The notes under the pieces: generated by a model
Databases searched by the model: none
What the model was told of the DNA's origin: nothing
What the model saw: only the letters and a program-made list of their open reading frames with translations
Shown here: one piece after another, positions 1,106 to 6,994 of the stretch
Position numbering within the stretch: position 1 is the stretch's first letter
How the letters are laid out: the number at the start of each line of letters is the position of its first letter
Program-made: the position numbers and the translations under genes
Assembly: GCF_003334405.1 (NCBI RefSeq)
Contig: NZ_QOWM01000003.1
Origin: Escherichia coli
GTDB lineage: Bacteria; Pseudomonadota; Gammaproteobacteria; Enterobacterales; Enterobacteriaceae
Length of the DNA stretch: 64,000 nucleotides
Reading direction: 5' to 3' (one strand)

Positions 1106-1726
1106 GTGCTAGACCGCCATCTTCATCCCCGGATTAAACCGTTGTTGCATCAGTGCGTGCGGGTTCTTGATAAACCGGGCATTACGCCAGATGGTTTAAC
1201 ATTAGTGGGATTTGCCATCGGCGTGCTGGCTCTGCCGTTTCTGGCGCTGGGCTGGTATCTGGCGGCGCTAGTCGTCATTTTGTTGAACAGGCTGCTTGAT
1301 GGTCTGGACGGTGCGCTGGCGCGGCGCAGAGAGCTTACCGACGCGGGCGGCTTTCTTGATATTTCTCTCGATTTTCTCTTTTACGCGCTGGTGCCGTTTG
1401 GCTTTATTCTTGCTGCACCGGAGCAAAATGCGCTGGCAGGCGGCTGGTTGTTGTTTGCGTTTATCGGCACGGGCAGCAGTTTTCTCGCCTTTGCTGCACT
1501 GGCAGCAAAACATCAGATTGATAACCCCGGTTATGCACATAAGTCGTTTTACTATCTGGGGGGATTAACCGAAGGCACAGAAACGATCTTACTGTTTGTG
1601 CTGGGATGTTTATTCCCTGCATGGTTTGCGTGGTTTGCGTGGATCTTCGGTGCGTTGTGCTGGATGACGACCTTTACGCGGGTGTGGAGTGGGTATCTGA
1701 CGCTGAAGTCGCTCCAGCGTCAGTAA
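1106..1726 (+). CDS. ynjF: CDP-alcohol phosphatidyltransferase family inner membrane protein
   Basis: ORF contains the CDP-OH phosphotransferase motif DGLDGALARRRELTDAGGFLDISLD and multiple hydrophobic helices. Start chosen at GTG 1106 (AAGGAG at 1095..1100, 5 nt spacing; gives 206 aa); ORF track begins at GTG 1100. Confidence 0.8.
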   Translation: MLDRHLHPRIKPLLHQCVRVLDKPGITPDGLTLVGFAIGVLALPFLALGWYLAALVVILLNRLLDGLDGALARRRELTDAGGFLDISLDFLFYALVPFGFILAAPEQNALAGGWLLFAFIGTGSSFLAFAALAAKHQIDNPGYAHKSFYYLGGLTEGTETILLFVLGCLFPAWFAWFAWIFGALCWMTTFTRVWSGYLTLKSLQRQ

Positions 1727-1734
1727 TTGCAATG

Positions 1735-3042
1735 TTATTTGCTACTGTCCGGGCCGCGTTCACCGGTTGCTACCGGATTTTTTGGATCGCTGCTCCATTC
1801 GTACCAGCCGCCGTCATACACGGAAACATTCTTCCAACCCATGGCGCGTGCGTACATAAAGGTTTCGGACGCGCGCCAGCCGGTGCCGCAGTAGAATGAA
1901 ACTTGCTGCTCTGGTTTGATATTCCACGCTTTCCACATAGCGGTAATATCATCGGCGCTGCGCATGGTGCCATCCGGGTTATGAAAATCTTCCATATGCG
2001 TCGAGTCGCTACCAGCGTGTCCCCAACGTGCGCCGGCTATTTCACCTTTTGGTTTAATATAGCTGTAACCGCTGGTCGTACCGATAAATTCTGGCCACGA
2101 ACGAATGCTCACCAGCGATGCATCCTGGCGATGCAGCAGTCCACGGGCCTGTTCCATATCGAGCATCAACTGCGGTTGTGCCGGGATCTTCACGCCGAAA
2201 TCCGGTTCCGCTTTCACTTTCGGTGGCGTTCCGCGCTCAACAGGCAGTCCCGCGTCGGACCAGGTTTGCCAGCCGCCATCCAGCAGGCGCACATCTTTCA
2301 CGCCAGCATAAAGCATAATCTGCGCCACACGCGCTGCAGCGTATACGTCACGCCCATACAGAATGACCGTGGTGTCATGGCGAATGCCGTGTTTTGCCAG
2401 CATCGCTTTTAGTTGTTCATCAGAAACTTTGTTCCACAGCGGTTCACTTTCCACTTCGTTGGTATCGATGTAGTCAGCGCCGGGAATATGGCTGATAAGG
2501 TAAAGCTTAGGAGCGCCCCAGGCCGCTTCAATGACTTTCCAGTCACCGGCAGGTTTCGCCGTAACCTCTTTACCTTGTTGCAGGTCGTGCAGCCATTGCG
2601 GATAAACCAGCTGCTCAAAATGCGGCAGTTTTTGCAGACGGGAAGGTTCGCTTAGCGCGTCACTCAGGATGGAGATATGCGTTAAACCTGCTTTTTGCAG
2701 TCGCGTTTTGACGGCGTCGACATCTTTGTCATTACCGTACAGCGCCACCGGAGCATCGGTTTTCAGGTTATGTTGCTTGATCCACGCGTTGAGCTGTTCG
2801 GTGCTCATTTTGTCAAGCCAGCTGGCAGAGAGGTTTAAGGCGGCAGGTTCATGACCAGAAGGGCCATTTAAGGTTTGTGGCCAGCCGTTATAAAACGCGC
2901 TGGGGCGAGTATCTATCGCTTTGCCATTTTGTTGTTGAAGCTGGTCAAGTGTAAGAGGCTTCGCCAGTTCAGCGGCCCACGAAGAAGCGCAAGCCAGCCC
3001 TAAAGCCATTGCCAGCGCGGTCATTTGAGAAACACGTTTCAT
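1735..3042 (-). CDS. ynjE: periplasmic thiosulfate/3-mercaptopyruvate sulfurtransferase with rhodanese domains
   Basis: ORF with signal peptide (MKRVSQMTALAMALGLACASSWA) and rhodanese active-site motif FYCGTGWRAS; start trimmed to ATG at 3040..3042 (435 aa) from the 440 aa ORF. Confidence 0.85.
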   Translation of the reverse strand: MKRVSQMTALAMALGLACASSWAAELAKPLTLDQLQQQNGKAIDTRPSAFYNGWPQTLNGPSGHEPAALNLSASWLDKMSTEQLNAWIKQHNLKTDAPVALYGNDKDVDAVKTRLQKAGLTHISILSDALSEPSRLQKLPHFEQLVYPQWLHDLQQGKEVTAKPAGDWKVIEAAWGAPKLYLISHIPGADYIDTNEVESEPLWNKVSDEQLKAMLAKHGIRHDTTVILYGRDVYAAARVAQIMLYAGVKDVRLLDGGWQTWSDAGLPVERGTPPKVKAEPDFGVKIPAQPQLMLDMEQARGLLHRQDASLVSIRSWPEFIGTTSGYSYIKPKGEIAGARWGHAGSDSTHMEDFHNPDGTMRSADDITAMWKAWNIKPEQQVSFYCGTGWRASETFMYARAMGWKNVSVYDGGWYEWSSDPKNPVATGERGPDSSK

Positions 3043-3108
3043 CGAAAATCCCGACATTGTAGTTTTGAGTGCGCCATTCTGAACTGACGCATTGAGAAAA
3101 ACTTTGCG

Positions 3109-5297: not shown

Positions 5298-6436
5298 TCT
5301 TGTTCCAGCGCATTTACCCAACCTGCGTGCGGTTCAGCCAGTACCGGCGGCAGATCCTGCGGCATTCTTGATTGCAATGATTCGCGCTGCCCGTCAGGCA
5401 GTTTTTGCGGATCGAGAACAGAAGGATCGCCCCAGACAGCGGGATCTGCTTTACGCAGTTGCGCATCGGGTGAGAGCAGGAAATTGGCAACTACCTTCGC
5501 CGCAGCACTGGCATTCGCGTTGGCAGGAATGGTGACGAAATGCACGTTGCCAATCATCCCCTCGCGAAAGCCAAAACTGTAACTGCTTGCAGGCAAATCG
5601 CCGCTGGCGATTTTTTGCTGCGCATGCGCGGGGTTAAAGGTCAGCGACAGGCGCAATGTGCCGGCTTTCAGCAGAGCATCCATCCGCGCGGGTGAAGGCG
5701 GGAAATCCTTTCCTTCGCGCCACAAATACGGATGCAGCACATCAAGATATTGCCACAAGGGAGCAGTGACACGGGCGAAAGTCGCATCGTCCGGCGCTTC
5801 TTTTAATGCGGCGGGATCGGGCGTCAGCATAATCAGCAACTGTTCAAGAAACGCCGTGCCGGTAAAGTCCGGTGGGCGCGGATAGGTAACCGTGCCGGGA
5901 TTGGCTTTAGCAAACTCCAGTAAGGCTTGCGGCGTTTGTGGTGGCTGTGGCGTAACATCGCGGCGGGCGATAAACGTCAGTTGTGCGCCGCCCCAGGGCG
6001 ATTCCGCACCTTGTGTCGGCACAGAAAAATCTTCCCGCACCGGCAGCTGTGTGTCGACATAGCGCCAGTTGGGCAGAGTCTCCGCCCAGCCCGTTTGTAA
6101 TAAATTGGCCTCTTTTAAGGTGCGGAAGTTTTCGCCGTTCACCCAGAGCAGATCCACCGAGCCGCCCGTTTTACGTCCGGCTGCGGCTTCGGTCTGAATG
6201 CGCTTCACCGCGTCTGCGGCATCCGCCAGACGGACAATCTTCAGGTTTATAGCGTAATGGGTTTTCATCTCGCCGCTCACCCAGTCGAGATAACGGTTAA
6301 TTGCGGTATCGCCGCCCCAGGCGTTAAACCAGACGGTTTGCCCTTTGGCCTCATTTTTAATTTCTTGCCAGTCACTGGCATGTGTTGCCAGAGAAAACAG
6401 CGATAACAATCCCAGCAACCACCCACAATGGCGCAT
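5270..6436 (-). CDS. ynjB: ABC transporter periplasmic substrate-binding protein
   Basis: 388 aa ORF with N-terminal signal peptide (LLGLLSLFSLATHA); gene order binding protein-permease-ATPase; AGGAGA-like RBS upstream. Confidence 0.85.
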   Translation of the reverse strand: MRHCGWLLGLLSLFSLATHASDWQEIKNEAKGQTVWFNAWGGDTAINRYLDWVSGEMKTHYAINLKIVRLADAADAVKRIQTEAAAGRKTGGSVDLLWVNGENFRTLKEANLLQTGWAETLPNWRYVDTQLPVREDFSVPTQGAESPWGGAQLTFIARRDVTPQPPQTPQALLEFAKANPGTVTYPRPPDFTGTAFLEQLLIMLTPDPAALKEAPDDATFARVTAPLWQYLDVLHPYLWREGKDFPPSPARMDALLKAGTLRLSLTFNPAHAQQKIASGDLPASSYSFGFREGMIGNVHFVTIPANANASAAAKVVANFLLSPDAQLRKADPAVWGDPSVLDPQKLPDGQRESLQSRMPQDLPPVLAEPHAGWVNALEQEWLHRYGTH

Positions 6437-6445
6437 CATCTCTCC

Positions 6446-6994
6446 TTAAGAACGTTTTTCAGGAATACGGCACAGCCCCTGAGCGGGAATGTCCATGGCA
6501 GAATTAAAACGGGCTGACAGATTTTGCAGGCCGATCAATGCCGTCAGTTCGGTGAGCGCCTGAGCGTCAAAATGCGCAGCCAGTCGGGTACGCAGGGCAT
6601 CATCGACCGTTGGCGGCGTTACGCTTGCGGCTTCGGCGTACTCCAGCGCCAGCCGTTCTTCATCGCTAAAGAGCGGGCTTTGCCGCCAGTCAGCCACTGC
6701 CAGCAGTTTATCGCTGCTGCCGGTGCGCTCGGCGACTTTCATACTGGTGATATCCACACAAAACTCACACAGGCACATTTGCGCAATGCGCGCGCTGACA
6801 AGCGATCGTACTACCGGATCGAGCGGTGAGCGTTTGCGCTCCAGCCAGCCAACAAACATCGACACCAGATAAAAGATAAACGGGATCCGCCCCCACCAGC
6901 GAATGGGGCTTAGCACCTCGCCGTAATGGCGACGATGCAGCCACGCCTGTGGACGTAAAATTAAAGGAATTTTGCTAAGCGGCGGTAAACCCAT
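6446..6994 (-). CDS. ynjA: carboxymuconolactone decarboxylase / AhpD-like family protein
   Basis: 182 aa ORF; family assignment from memory of YnjA; start ATG overlaps ydjZ stop (ATGA). Confidence 0.8.
   Translation of the reverse strand: MGLPPLSKIPLILRPQAWLHRRHYGEVLSPIRWWGRIPFIFYLVSMFVGWLERKRSPLDPVVRSLVSARIAQMCLCEFCVDITSMKVAERTGSSDKLLAVADWRQSPLFSDEERLALEYAEAASVTPPTVDDALRTRLAAHFDAQALTELTALIGLQNLSARFNSAMDIPAQGLCRIPEKRS

Follow-up and report, generated by a model that had tools for sequence, protein, structure and literature searches.

In rhizobia, Pseudomonas and Legionella an exogenous alcohol, choline, is brought into the cell by the binding protein-dependent ABC importer ChoXWV and is joined to CDP-diacylglycerol by Pcs, a small CDP-alcohol phosphatidyltransferase, with release of CMP. 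The importer YnjBCD and the transferase YnjF of Escherichia coli would follow the same logic of import and subsequent transfer. The Pcs models match YnjF with merely 20 bits (cut-offs 300-440), and unlike in ChoXWV/Pcs, importer and transferase are translationally coupled in YnjBCD-YnjF systems and travel with DedA proteins, disulfide reductases and an AhpD-like protein. The nearest characterised families to YnjF are archaetidylinositol-P synthase (AIPS), with a full-length match of 63 bits that falls well short of the cut-offs (170-180 bits), and the Mtb PIP synthase (profile E 2e-8). YnjF agrees with PgsA1/PIPS, AIPS (PDB 6H53, 5D92) and AF2299/DIPP synthase in its size, its six TM helices and its metal/CDP motif, which is identical, whereas no inositol-phosphate synthase gene is linked to ynjF.

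Cluster-D importers (ThiBPQ for thiamine, PhnS2T2U2 for 2-AEP, FbpABC for Fe3+, AfuABC for sugar phosphates, PotABCD) have the architecture of YnjBCD, namely a substrate-binding protein (SBP), a twelve-helix double permease and an ATPase. The AF2 model of YnjB (pLDDT 94.9) adopts a predicted cluster-D SBP fold and superposes on STM0429, PotD, FutA/FbpA, AfuA and TbpA with TM scores of 0.55-0.67 (query-normalised). In comparison with these systems YnjB is about 60 residues longer, YnjD has no regulatory domain, and coupling to a CDP-alcohol transferase occurs in none of them.

Apart from YnjE itself (PDB 3IPO/2WLR), the closest solved chains to this rhodanese are the 460-aa sulfurtransferases 6KTV/6H98 (E about 1e-88), which we take to be EanB, the anaerobic ergothioneine synthase of Chlorobium limicola. 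The identity of 38% extends across all three rhodanese domains, and the catalytic FYCGTGWR loop, the Tyr before this loop and the SGY tyrosine (Y-to-F in 6KW0) are kept. In contrast to EanB, YnjE is exported, Tyr375 is replaced by Thr, and no gene for a hercynine-forming methyltransferase lies beside ynjE in the region analysed. YnjE has been cited among "EanB-like enzymes" that may sulfurise heterocycles (PMC9516567).

YdjX and YdjZ have the DedA/VTT domain in common with the DedA superfamily, including UptA-type undecaprenyl-phosphate (UndP) flippases, PetA and the eukaryotic TMEM41B/VMP1 scramblases. YdjZ is the exemplar of subfamily COG0398, in which fusions with pyridine-nucleotide disulfide oxidoreductases occur and the residues tied to UndP flipping are absent (10.1101/2023.01.04.522824). 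Against UptA both proteins score 27-36 bits (cut-off 250). Unlike the UptA type, the DedA proteins of YnjB and YdjY loci have as partners YdjY, rhodaneses and disulfide reductases, the latter of three unrelated kinds.

Gene organization and transcription

The window analysed here is a 64,000-nt stretch of E. coli DNA (contig NZ_QOWM01000003.1). Gene coordinates were taken from the RefSeq annotation, and matching ORFs are present (Table 1). They agree with the gene content from ynjF to ynjA given in a previous sequence-only reading, whose family assignments (YnjA CMD/AhpD-like, YnjB SBP, YnjD ABC ATPase, YnjE rhodanese, YnjF PF01066) held as well. As that reading had stated, the sequence is not new: E. 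coli chromosomes are 100% identical to the region, which was found in 5425 of 5426 complete E. coli genomes. Sequence and gene block are already catalogued.

Table 1. Features of the ynjF-ydjX region (window positions).
Feature	Position	Strand	Description
nudG	612..1019	-	CTP pyrophosphohydrolase; NF007834, 268 bits
ynjF	1106..1726	+	206-aa, six-TM CDP-alcohol phosphatidyltransferase family protein
ynjE	1735..3042	-	periplasmic three-domain rhodanese
Terminator-like hairpin and T-run	1763..1776	+	3' of ynjF, within the ynjE 3' end; pattern scan
ynjD-ynjE intergenic region	3043..3108	-	contains promoter-like element (-35 TTCAGA, -10 TACAAT at 3083-3056)
ynjD	3109..3762	-	ABC ATPase, 217 aa, without C-terminal regulatory domain
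ynjC	3762..5297	-	fused double permease, 511 aa
ynjB	5270..6436	-	periplasmic substrate-binding protein; signal peptide end THA/SD
ynjA	6446..6994	-	AhpD/CMD family, C-E-F-C motif
ydjZ	6994..7701	-	COG0398-type DedA (TVP38/TMEM64) membrane protein
ydjY	7716..8393	-	periplasmic lipoprotein, lipobox LSGC; invariant C173-x2-C176-x3-C180
ydjX	8398..9108	-	second COG0398-type DedA protein; first gene of the operon
FNR-box-like palindrome TTGAGAAAAATCAA	9218..9231		upstream of ydjX; one mismatch to TTGAT-N4-ATCAA

The tight packing described for ynjA to ynjD is borne out: the overlap measures 1 nt for ynjC/ynjD and 28 nt for ynjB/ynjC, and a spacer of 9 nt separates ynjA from ynjB. The minus-strand block does not begin at ynjA, where the sequence-only reading had placed its start. 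Nucleotide 6994 is common to the ydjZ stop and the ynjA start, the ydjZ-ydjY and ydjY-ydjX gaps measure 14 and 4 nt, and the packing thus runs on through ydjZ, ydjY and ydjX up to the FNR-like box. Nor does ynjF diverge from the block: it converges on ynjE, the two stop codons lying 8 nt apart, and is divergent from nudG. The latter adjoins in 16 of 19 enteric YnjB loci and in none of the 62 non-enteric ones, so that this synteny is limited to enterics.

The genes ydjXYZ-ynjABCD form an FNR-activated operon with an FNR site at -60.5, and ynjE has its own FNR-activated promoter with a site at -41.5 (PMC3688515). The box TTGAGAAAAATCAA is consistent with the published site of the operon; the FNR box of ynjE found no unambiguous placement in the sequence. 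Because the terminator-like hairpin of ynjF lies inside the ynjE 3' end, the convergent transcripts would overlap, and ExcludonFinder gives ynjE-ynjF among the convergent overlapping pairs (PMC12288877). An anaerobic co-expression module comprises ynjE, ydjXYZ-ynjABCD, yedEF and yjiLM, and ynjF is not in the list of this iModulon (PMC7888660). With its own promoter, and with a promoter-like element in the 66 nt behind ynjD, ynjE is transcribed separately, and so is ynjF on the opposite strand. Independence from ynjABCD, a point the sequence-only reading had raised for both genes, therefore holds for transcription, but ynjE shares its regulation with the operon.

Conserved partners of the transporter

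About 100 loci from other bacteria were compared. Counts for YnjB loci refer to 62 non-enteric and 19 enteric ones. An orthologue of YnjE is present in 18 of the enteric loci and in none of the 62 non-enteric ones; one Vibrio YnjB locus carries a two-domain rhodanese which is unrelated to YnjE. Judged from these sequences, ynjE was inserted between ynjD and ynjF in Enterobacteriaceae specifically. By contrast, ynjF was found at 35 of the 62 non-enteric loci. The coupling of importer and rhodanese proposed earlier is thus not conserved in evolution: the conserved partner of the transporter is YnjF, together with DedA and thiol-redox helpers, and not YnjE.

The order ynjB-ynjC-ynjD-ynjF on one strand occurs in 32 non-enteric species loci, which derive from Comamonadaceae, Vibrionaceae, Deefgea, Desulfosediminicola and Methylobacillus. 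The ynjD stop and ynjF start overlap by 8 nt in 18 loci (17 chromosomal and plasmid pYDC637, where the RefSeq annotation has the overlap too) and by 11 nt in six. Three Rhizobiaceae loci and three alphaproteobacterial plasmids show the order ynjF-...-ynjBCD, and at 19 of 54 non-enteric transporter loci, mostly of Alphaproteobacteria, ynjF is absent within 10 kb. In E. coli ynjF is inverted and uncoupled from ynjBCD. A search seeded with YnjF, independent of YnjB, yielded 63 plasmid records. ABC genes stand beside ynjF in five of the six contexts inspected; the sixth, on a Sphingopyxis plasmid (TBDR-CNT-ynjF-AhpD-like), has a TonB receptor and a NupC/CNT-family importer in their place. That an unrelated importer was swapped in argues that YnjF acts on something imported. 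In Pseudoalteromonas ynjF overlaps by 8 nt with a gene for an OlsE-like lipid head-group hydroxylase. Genes for a cytidylyltransferase or a lipid phosphatase were not linked to the cluster.

YnjF matches PF01066 (E 5e-11) with an intact catalytic motif. Across 56 homologues D65-x2-D68-G69-x2-A72-R73-x7-G81-x3-D85-x3-D89 is invariant, likewise K146, E156, E159, C185 and R192. Except for R192 these latter residues are, together with C168, family-specific and lie outside the general CDP-alcohol transferase motif. R192 aligns with R195 of the Mtb PIP synthase; in this enzyme and in AIPS the acceptor is a phosphorylated alcohol.

Further recurrent partners at the non-enteric YnjB loci are COG0398-type DedA proteins, FAD reductases and an AhpD-like CxxC protein of the YnjA type. 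Of the 62 loci, 22 have a DedA gene within 10 kb, and 14 of these 22 encode DedA as a fusion with an FAD CxxxxC disulfide reductase. In [Enterobacter] lignolyticus and on the Sphingopyxis plasmid the AhpD-like gene overlaps or directly adjoins ynjF, and in most other enterics the two genes are neighbours. PDB relatives of YnjA include CMD/AhpD-family proteins, and the "YciW-related (seleno)protein" family matches with 101 bits, under the cut-off; YnjA is probably a thiol-disulfide redox helper. Pairs of YdjY and DedA recur in distant anaerobes. YdjZ is 52-54% identical to the DedA neighbours of YdjY in Firmicutes and other anaerobes, and YdjX 33-35% identical to the second or fused DedA of such clusters.

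Proposed roles and alternative explanations

We read the E. coli genes ydjXYZ-ynjABCD, ynjE and ynjF as a merger of two modules with a common DedA hub, one leading from an importer to the lipid-type transferase YnjF and one comprising YdjXYZ and YnjE. We advance this reading as a tentative one, which may well prove wrong. It builds on gene order, operon coupling, motifs, co-occurrence and co-regulation, all observed here or published. In the core module the binder YnjB, the double permease YnjC and the ATPase YnjD would import a small polar compound, a (phospho)alcohol, and pass it to the membrane enzyme YnjF; both the direction of transport and this hand-over we infer. YnjF would join the imported compound to a CDP-activated partner, for which CDP-diacylglycerol is the likeliest candidate, and set CMP free. 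The product would probably be a minor membrane phospholipid, which a DedA protein may then redistribute across the bilayer. DIPP synthase and some other CDP-alcohol transferases use soluble substrates, therefore a lipid product is not guaranteed. Also against this reading speak the 19 transporter loci that lack ynjF, the uncoupled ynjF of E. coli, the missing cytidylyltransferase and lipid phosphatase genes and the wide range of binders that YnjB resembles. YnjA could keep a thiol of the substrate, or the two conserved cysteines of YnjF, reduced, a redox role that disulfide reductases fused or adjacent to DedA would take over in other bacteria. The redox partners and selenium-flavoured family names are left unexplained by a simple salvage of head groups. 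The other module, YdjX-YdjY-YdjZ with YnjE, may be an anaerobe-type periplasmic and membrane unit for sulfane sulfur, possibly selenium; without oxygen, FNR turns on the ydjX-ynjD operon and ynjE.

The sequence-only reading had suggested uptake and processing of sulfur compounds. Widened to selenium, this would mean that YnjBCD takes up S or Se as an organic or inorganic compound, that the reductases, the AhpD-like protein, the rhodanese and YdjY deliver persulfide or selenide for anaerobic Fe-S, Moco and selenoprotein synthesis, and that YnjF is an accessory. We consider this unlikely as an account of the whole locus, although several observations favour it. The authors of the co-expression study propose Mo/Se usage (PMC7888660), and both transcription units are FNR-activated (PMC3688515). 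In L090 and L091, from distant anaerobes, a YnjE-like rhodanese adjoins YdjY-DedA, and in L098 YjiLM-like genes, an HdrD::DedA fusion, YdjY, a CysA-type ABC system, ThiS, a PLP enzyme and ThiF lie on one strand. A Vibrio locus (L069) combines a rhodanese, a "diclust_near_Sec" reductase and DedA with ynjBCDF, a TIGR03169 "Nterm_to_SelD" reductase adjoins in about 10 loci, and AhpD-like selenoprotein families score with YnjA-type proteins. The selenium hints are, however, family names and sub-threshold scores, and the grouping of ynjA-F genetic-interaction profiles with suf genes may be a linkage artefact of adjacent genes in eSGA. The locus is indeed under-characterised, as had been noted. Against the sulfur/selenium explanation, purified YnjE had no apparent thiosulfate:GSH activity (PMC10215317), its orthologues are missing from the 62 non-enteric YnjB loci, and the tightest-coupled gene, a CDP-alcohol transferase, would be left unexplained. 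Among the top 50 fold matches of the YnjB model, no entry is described as binding sulfate or thiosulfate. A sulfur or chalcogen theme, as in the earlier reading, is borne out for part of the locus (co-expression module, FNR, L090/L091, L098).

YnjB belongs to SBP family NF008633 (560 bits), and no sequence relative was found in the PDB. Its model matches PhnS-, PotD-, FbpA-, AfuA- and TbpA-type binders, whose ligands range from amines and Fe3+ to sugar phosphates and thiamine, at only 11-17% identity. An ordinary nutrient importer, for thiamine or of the 2-aminoethylphosphonate/polyamine type, with neighbours gathered by chance or shared regulation, would agree with the matches to STM0429 (PhnS-type), PotD and TbpA, with the JGI label [quoted passage not shown] on homologues and with PhnT2 and ThiQ, which besides the sulfate transporter ATPase family are the best NCBIfam matches of YnjD, and the weak best match of YnjC, PhnU2. 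These family scores are all far under the curated cut-offs, though, no TPP or other riboswitch was found upstream in the window or in seven loci scanned, and both the ynjD/ynjF overlap of 8-11 nt, kept across several proteobacterial classes, and the recurrent DedA, reductase and AhpD-like partners make this explanation very improbable. Quite improbable, too, is that the cassette handles a metal chelate or remodels the envelope under copper, gold or mercury-type stress, with the fused FAD reductase reducing a metal or metal-thiolate. Fe3+/metal-citrate binders resemble the YnjB fold as much as any class, two loci have TonB-dependent receptors ahead of the cluster, and a bufferin-type operon (DUF2282-DUF692-DUF2063-like-DoxX) with ECF sigma and anti-sigma genes immediately precedes the cassette on IncC plasmid pYDC637 and on a plasmid of Paracoccus. 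A BufB-type MNIO gene occurs within 10 kb in nine of 62 chromosomal loci, and bufferins protect against copper (PMC11626156). Yet this link concerns a minority of loci from related lineages or mobile islands, the bufferin papers do not name the cassette as a member of the clusters they describe, the one fused reductase sequence considered (L064) has no MerA-type Cys pair at its C-terminus, regulation in E. coli is by FNR and not by a metal sensor, and YnjF would be without a role.

The conserved partners of the transporter give a concrete route to testing several orphan E. coli genes. In favour of our preferred reading of an importer feeding YnjF, the exchange P213S in ynjC brought a strong fitness gain with colistin (PMC9184624), a phenotype of the envelope-lipid type.

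Gene map and transcription units of the ydjXYZ-ynjABCDEF locus

For the gene map, the RefSeq annotation of E. coli C was transferred onto the ORF list of the window. Positions 1-9000 are 100% identical to several E. coli chromosomes and, being present in 5425 of the 5426 complete genomes of this species, belong to the core genome. The gene list, coordinates and family assignments of the earlier sequence-only reading were all confirmed, while two statements on gene arrangement had to be corrected. The gene ynjF, which had been called divergent, is convergent with ynjE (stop codons 8 nt apart) and divergent from nudG, and the close-packed block, which had been taken to start at ynjA, continues via ydjZ (1-nt overlap) and ydjY to ydjX. 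The 3' ends of ynjH (plus strand) and nudG (minus strand) share 35 nt (612-646).

Features of the locus with their positions in the window
Feature	Position	Strand	Remark
ynjH	374-646	+	
nudG	612-1019	-	
ynjF	1106-1726	+	
ynjE	1735-3042	-	
Terminator-like hairpin of ynjF	1763-1776		within ynjE
ynjD	3109-3762	-	
ynjC	3762-5297	-	
ynjB	5270-6436	-	
ynjA	6446-6994	-	
ydjZ	6994-7701	-	
ydjY	7716-8393	-	
ydjX	8398-9108	-	
FNR-like box TTGAGAAAAATCAA	9218-9231		upstream of ydjX; 1 mismatch vs FNR consensus
xthA		-	next after ydjX

Myers et al. (PMC3688515) list two FNR-activated units, the operon ydjXYZ-ynjABCD with an FNR site at -60.5 and ynjE on its own with a site at -41.5. In the window, ynjE is set off from ynjD by a 66-nt spacer with a promoter-like element; the best candidates for the published ynjE FNR box within this spacer match only 4-5 of 10 consensus positions and the box was for this reason left unannotated. 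Independent-component analysis of E. coli transcriptomes yielded an anaerobic module of ydjXYZ-ynjABCD, ynjE, yedEF and yjiLM, for which the authors propose molybdenum/selenium use (PMC7888660), and ynjF is absent from the module list. The convergent overlapping transcript pairs in ExcludonFinder include ynjE-ynjF and nudG-ynjH (PMC12288877). Moreover, ynjABCD is weakly induced by BaeR overproduction (PMC2731931), and suf genes were grouped with ynjABCDEFI by genetic-interaction profiles (PMC3930520), a grouping which was given little weight because adjacent genes can co-cluster through linkage. The literature searched assigns no substrate to YnjBCD and no activity to YnjF, YnjA, YdjX, YdjY or YdjZ, and a search of positions 1-10300 for riboswitches or leaders as a clue to the ligand found none.

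Family assignment of the importer, YnjF, YnjE and YnjA

With a signal-peptide periplasmic binder, a permease and a Walker-type ATPase encoded in one operon, YnjBCD represents an ABC importer dependent on a substrate-binding protein (SBP), and is one of the ABC importers of E. coli that are still orphans. YnjB scored 560 bits against NF008633, YnjD matched ABC ATPase families and YnjC partially matched permease families. The best matches of YnjD and YnjC, namely PhnT2, ThiQ and PhnU2, stayed far under the curated cut-offs. In comparison with the thiamine system (ThiBPQ), ThiQ reached 130 bits (cut-offs 245-298), and no TPP riboswitch was found in positions 1-10300; with the sulfate/thiosulfate system (CysPTWA), CysA reached 110 bits (cut-off 502), and with the 2-AEP system (PhnS2T2U2), PhnT2 reached 146 (cut-off 458) and PhnU2 33 bits (cut-off 593). 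A sequence search of the PDB with YnjB returned no relative, the sole match having an E-value of 0.38. The YnjB model (pLDDT 94.9) shows a cluster-D binding-protein fold, and its best fold matches were STM0429 (PhnS-type), a C. jejuni binder, PotD, FutA/FbpA, AfuA, P5PA and TbpA (TM-score 0.54-0.67 query-normalised, 0.57-0.79 target-normalised). Since these cluster-D matches are only 11-17% identical to YnjB (TbpA 14-15%) and their specificities are many, no substrate could be called from the fold. The structure comparison, which had been proposed together with the idea of a sulfur-compound importer, thus gave neither a substrate nor a sulfur signal, and no protein described as a sulfate/thiosulfate binder occurred among the best 50 fold matches. 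In adaptive evolution, the exchange P213S in ynjC conferred a strong fitness advantage under colistin (PMC9184624), and a screen, as cited in that paper, connects ynjC deletion with less uptake of a cationic dye.

YnjF of the window carries the complete motif D65-G-L-D68-G69-A-L-A72-R73-x7-G81-x3-D85-x3-D89, which is invariant in 56 homologues and agrees with the PF01066 signature D-x2-D-G-x2-A-R-x7-8-G-x3-D-x3-D (TM2-TM3) of CDP-alcohol transferases; the CMP-releasing transfer from a CDP-activated donor to a hydroxyl acceptor is predicted. The nearest characterised families are the archaetidylinositol-phosphate and phosphatidylinositol-phosphate (PIP) synthases, with a profile E-value of 2e-8 to the Mycobacterium tuberculosis (Mtb) enzyme 6H53. 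With 63.2 and 41.9 bits, respectively, against cut-offs of 180 (NF040950) and 170 (NF045883), YnjF is related to this subfamily without being a member of it. The invariant R192 aligns, in a weak C-terminal alignment segment, with Mtb R195, and K135 and K146 are conserved as well; Mtb R195 and its partners are presumably the basic residues which hold the acceptor phosphate in PIP synthase. Two cysteines in the C-terminal transmembrane helices, C185 (56/56 homologues) and C168 (54/56), form a pair that is foreign to the general CDP-alcohol transferase motif and notable beside the AhpD-like and reductase partners described below. A homologue search in 90% clusters retrieved YnjF from enterics only. 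In E. coli, YnjF is one of few uncharacterised enzymes of the lipid-synthase type.

YnjE is a rhodanese, which matches its own crystal structures (3IPO/2WLR) and contains the catalytic cysteine loop CGTGWR. Among other solved proteins, the 460-aa sulfurtransferases 6KTV/6H98 come closest (E ~1e-88, 38% identity across the three domains); we take them to be the anaerobic ergothioneine synthase EanB. YnjE shares with them the FYCGTGWR loop and the SGY tyrosine, and with these three catalytic residues (the catalytic Cys, the adjacent Tyr and the SGY Tyr); the equivalent of EanB Tyr375 is a Thr in YnjE. An EanB-type enzyme would be expected to be linked to a hercynine-forming methyltransferase; YnjE has no methyltransferase gene nearby and possesses a signal peptide. 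YnjE has been cited among EanB-like enzymes of unknown function which might sulfurise heterocycles (PMC9516567), and thiosulfate:glutathione activity was not apparent in the purified protein (PMC10215317). Residue 65 is Pro in the window and Leu in both crystallised K-12-type sequences; this strain polymorphism lies in the first rhodanese domain, which is non-catalytic. YnjA belongs to the AhpD/CMD proteins, as indicated by relatives of this type in the PDB (E 3e-9 to 2e-5) and the motif C-E-F-C; PF02627 was recorded on a fused gene call.

YdjX-YdjY-YdjZ, DedA proteins and a possible link to sulfur

YdjX and YdjZ scored 27.5 and 36.4 bits against the UptA model NF052604 (cut-off 250), and YdjZ has been placed in COG0398, without the conserved acidic/basic re-entrant-loop residues of the UndP-flippase DedA (10.1101/2023.01.04.522824). 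Both are DedA proteins of the COG0398 subfamily, the one nearest to human TMEM41B/VMP1, and not of the UndP-flippase type (UptA, COG0586). Finegoldia, Desulfarculus, Sulfurospirillum and further anaerobes encode YdjY homologues of 50-60% identity. Of the eight distinct non-enteric loci that were inspected (L090/L091 and L092/L093 being counted separately), six have a DedA gene adjacent to or a few genes from ydjY. This neighbouring DedA shares 52-54% identity with E. coli YdjZ, and where there is a second or fused DedA, its identity to YdjX is 33-35%. As the pairing and the identities are kept in such distant anaerobes, the YdjX-YdjY-YdjZ trio is regarded as an old unit, which was probably acquired horizontally.

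At L090/L091, a 383-aa rhodanese is encoded divergently beside the YdjY-DedA pair; it is 40% identical to domains 2-3 of YnjE and has kept SGY and YCGTGWRA. A deltaproteobacterial MAG (L098) encodes on one strand HGD-D and BcrAD_BadFG proteins, an HdrD::DedA fusion, YdjY, a CysA-type ABC importer, ThiS, a PLP enzyme and ThiF; E. coli YjiM and YjiL belong to the Pfam families HGD-D and BcrAD_BadFG. The clustering in this MAG mirrors the E. coli co-expression module and is the best support for the sulfur-compound processing that the sequence-only reading had suggested. This support concerns the part consisting of DedA, YdjY and rhodanese and does not extend to YnjBCD; the earlier proposal was partly supported, but tied to the wrong partner.

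Three disulfide-reductase modules that are unrelated to one another occur beside DedA proteins of the COG0398 type or fused with them (L064:14062-16296, L084:1285-3450, L094:7205-8977, L098:3805-5580 and L069:6488-9778). These are an FAD/CxxxxC module of the Lpd-MerA type, a Fer4+CCG module of the HdrD type, which is fused to DedA in Desulfarculus (L094) and in the MAG L098, and a split NAD(P)/CCG module (GltD/HdrA-plus-CCG) of the "diclust_near_Sec" type. This convergence hints that the COG0398 DedA subfamily acts on a substrate of thiol/disulfide or chalcogen nature.

Gene linkage of ynjBCD and ynjF on chromosomes and plasmids

A genome scan with a 12-sequence YnjB alignment, using one genome per species, resulted in 80 loci, whose gene content was determined by tblastn with the E. 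coli proteins. The enteric set comprised 18 of these loci and the E. coli C reference (19 in total), the non-enteric set the other 62. Almost all enteric loci share the order ynjB-C-D, then ynjE, the inverted ynjF and nudG. A YnjA homologue is encoded upstream of ynjF and on its strand in most of them (Citrobacter, Kluyvera, Enterobacter, Cedecea, Shimwellia), in [Enterobacter] lignolyticus even with an 11-nt overlap, and the position of ynjA between ydjZ and ynjB in E. coli and E. albertii is on these grounds a local rearrangement.

Because many contigs are short, the counts for the non-enteric loci are lower bounds. The gene ynjF was present in 35 of the 62, directly after ynjD on the same strand in 32 cases and before the transporter in three Rhizobiaceae; the overlap of the ynjF start with the ynjD stop measures 8 nt in 17 loci, as also on plasmid pYDC637, and 11 nt in six. 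No ynjF was detected within the flank at 19 transporter loci, mostly alphaproteobacterial. DedA genes lay within 10 kb in 22 of the 62 loci, 14 of them fused to an FAD disulfide reductase (DedA::FAD) with the redox centre GGDCLNYGCVPSK. Further recurring genes encode the TIGR03169 "Nterm_to_SelD" FAD oxidoreductase (about 10 of 62), a bufferin-type MNIO (9/62) and a DUF3047 protein (8/62). HrpB, HslJ, rRNA methyltransferase, FtsY and MCP neighbours were also considered as members of the system and judged to be lineage-specific flanks. Tblastn detected no YnjE orthologue at any of the 62 loci. A rhodanese other than YnjE can nevertheless recur with the cassette, as Vibrio (L069) has the order two-domain rhodanese, split "diclust_near_Sec" NAD(P)/CCG reductase, DedA and ynjBCDF.

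The reverse test, a tblastn search with YnjF on 72,556 plasmids, returned 63 records, of which six contexts were opened. ABC genes adjoin ynjF in five of these six, and in many further rows the YnjF match overlaps an annotated ABC ATPase gene. On the Sphingopyxis plasmid pSFD01 (L086, 3680-9228), a TonB-dependent receptor, a NupC/CNT-family transporter, ynjF and an AhpD-like protein follow one another in this order; a thioredoxin-family gene and a DedA::FAD fusion lie upstream. Here the ABC importer is swapped and YnjF with its redox partners is kept, which argues that YnjF acts on something imported; the divergent NupC/CNT-family transporter hints that the compound could be nucleoside-like. 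The Pseudoalteromonas locus (L084) has the order TonB receptor, DedA::FAD, DUF547, ynjBCD and ynjF, and at 8001-9429 ynjF and the gene of an OlsE-like lipid head-group hydroxylase (ornithine-lipid hydroxylase family) overlap by 8 nt, which favours a lipid product.

A cassette with a 48.5%-identical ynjF (DedA::FAD, FAD oxidoreductase, SBP, permease, ATPase, ynjF) is carried by conjugative IncC and other plasmids of E. coli, Klebsiella, Salmonella, Citrobacter and Providencia (tblastn rows H23-H35), with cattle, veal, milk and humans as sources. On pYDC637 (L082, NZ_KP056256.1, 2567-14704) it directly follows a DUF2282-DUF692-DNA-binding-DoxX operon, has genes for an ECF sigma factor, an AhpD-like and a HAD protein as neighbours and is flanked by IS66, Tn3 and IS4321; a Paracoccus plasmid shows the same neighbourhood. 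DUF2282/DUF692/DUF2063/DoxX is the gene set of bufferins, copper-binding RiPPs, and the papers describing it make no mention of a ynjBCDF cassette (PMC11626156, PMC12452194). The pYDC637 cassette is a mosaic, as its SBP is nearest to enteric YnjB (64-67%) and its YnjF to the Rhodoferax type (63%).

The sequence and the operon were known before. The architecture predicted here varies known kinds of system: an importer and a CDP-alcohol transferase are coupled translationally and accompanied by DedA and disulfide-redox partners, and a version of this arrangement is also mobile on resistance plasmids. Three observations make a functional coupling of YnjBCD with YnjF very likely: the gene overlap is conserved over several classes of proteobacteria, the reverse test from YnjF led back to ABC genes, and an unrelated importer can displace the transporter. 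The most fitting reading of the E. coli locus is a pair of modules, YdjX-YdjY-YdjZ with YnjE on one side and YnjA with YnjBCD and YnjF on the other, which have a COG0398 DedA as their common hub. With these genes forming a conserved cassette under translational coupling, of which a version also occurs on conjugative multidrug-resistance plasmids, several isolated "y-genes" become testable as a single pathway.

For this pathway we tentatively propose, with considerable doubt as to the whole, that YnjBCD would import a polar (phospho)alcohol, which YnjF would transfer onto CDP-diacylglycerol under release of CMP, that DedA would flip the product and that the redox partners would give thiol-redox support. 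The recurrence of three disulfide-reductase kinds and an AhpD-like CxxC protein, together with C185 and C168 of YnjF, indicates a thiol/chalcogen chemistry which is beyond what a plain head-group salvage model explains. Selenium-flavoured family names recur (TIGR03169, NF045663, NF053654, NF041238, ExtH), and the operon is co-expressed with yedEF; a selenium reading is thereby kept alive, but on the strength of names and sub-threshold scores. A far bolder scheme, which we hold to be very improbable in all its steps jointly, would have the cassette build and recycle a lipid-anchored thiol/chalcogen carrier. YnjF would join an imported alcohol with a thiol, disulfide or selenium group (or a chalcogen nucleophile itself) to a phosphatidyl group and the COG0398 DedA would flip this carrier to the periplasmic face, where it would serve as membrane-bound reductant or sulfane/selenium shuttle for YdjY, YnjE or copper-binding bufferins; the DedA-linked disulfide reductase (FAD-, HdrD- or GltD/HdrA-type) and the AhpD-like protein would re-reduce it at the cytoplasmic face. 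Such a carrier would be a small-molecule analogue of DsbD and provide a function for the large COG0398 DedA subfamily. If a conditional membrane lipid or chalcogen carrier is made anaerobically in the gut, it would bear on envelope remodelling and polymyxin susceptibility (ynjC P213S) as well as on copper stress and anaerobic sulfur and selenium supply; were YnjBCD an ordinary nutrient importer instead, the finding would be routine.

Some YnjB homologues (48-52% identity) have no detectable adjacent YnjC, YnjD or YnjF (L032 from Hafnia, L070 from Edwardsiella, and L038, L051, L065 and L068) and may be orphan or otherwise partnered binders. At loci outside the window, the riboswitch search found two kinds only: in Rhodoferax and Limnohabitans an SAH riboswitch (L025:6856-6938, L064:6937-7037), after which a methionine-synthase (MetH) fragment lies directly upstream of ynjB, and in Photobacterium a distant c-di-GMP-I riboswitch (L074:161-266), which is located upstream of the ORFs preceding YnjA-DedA::FAD-ynjBCDF.
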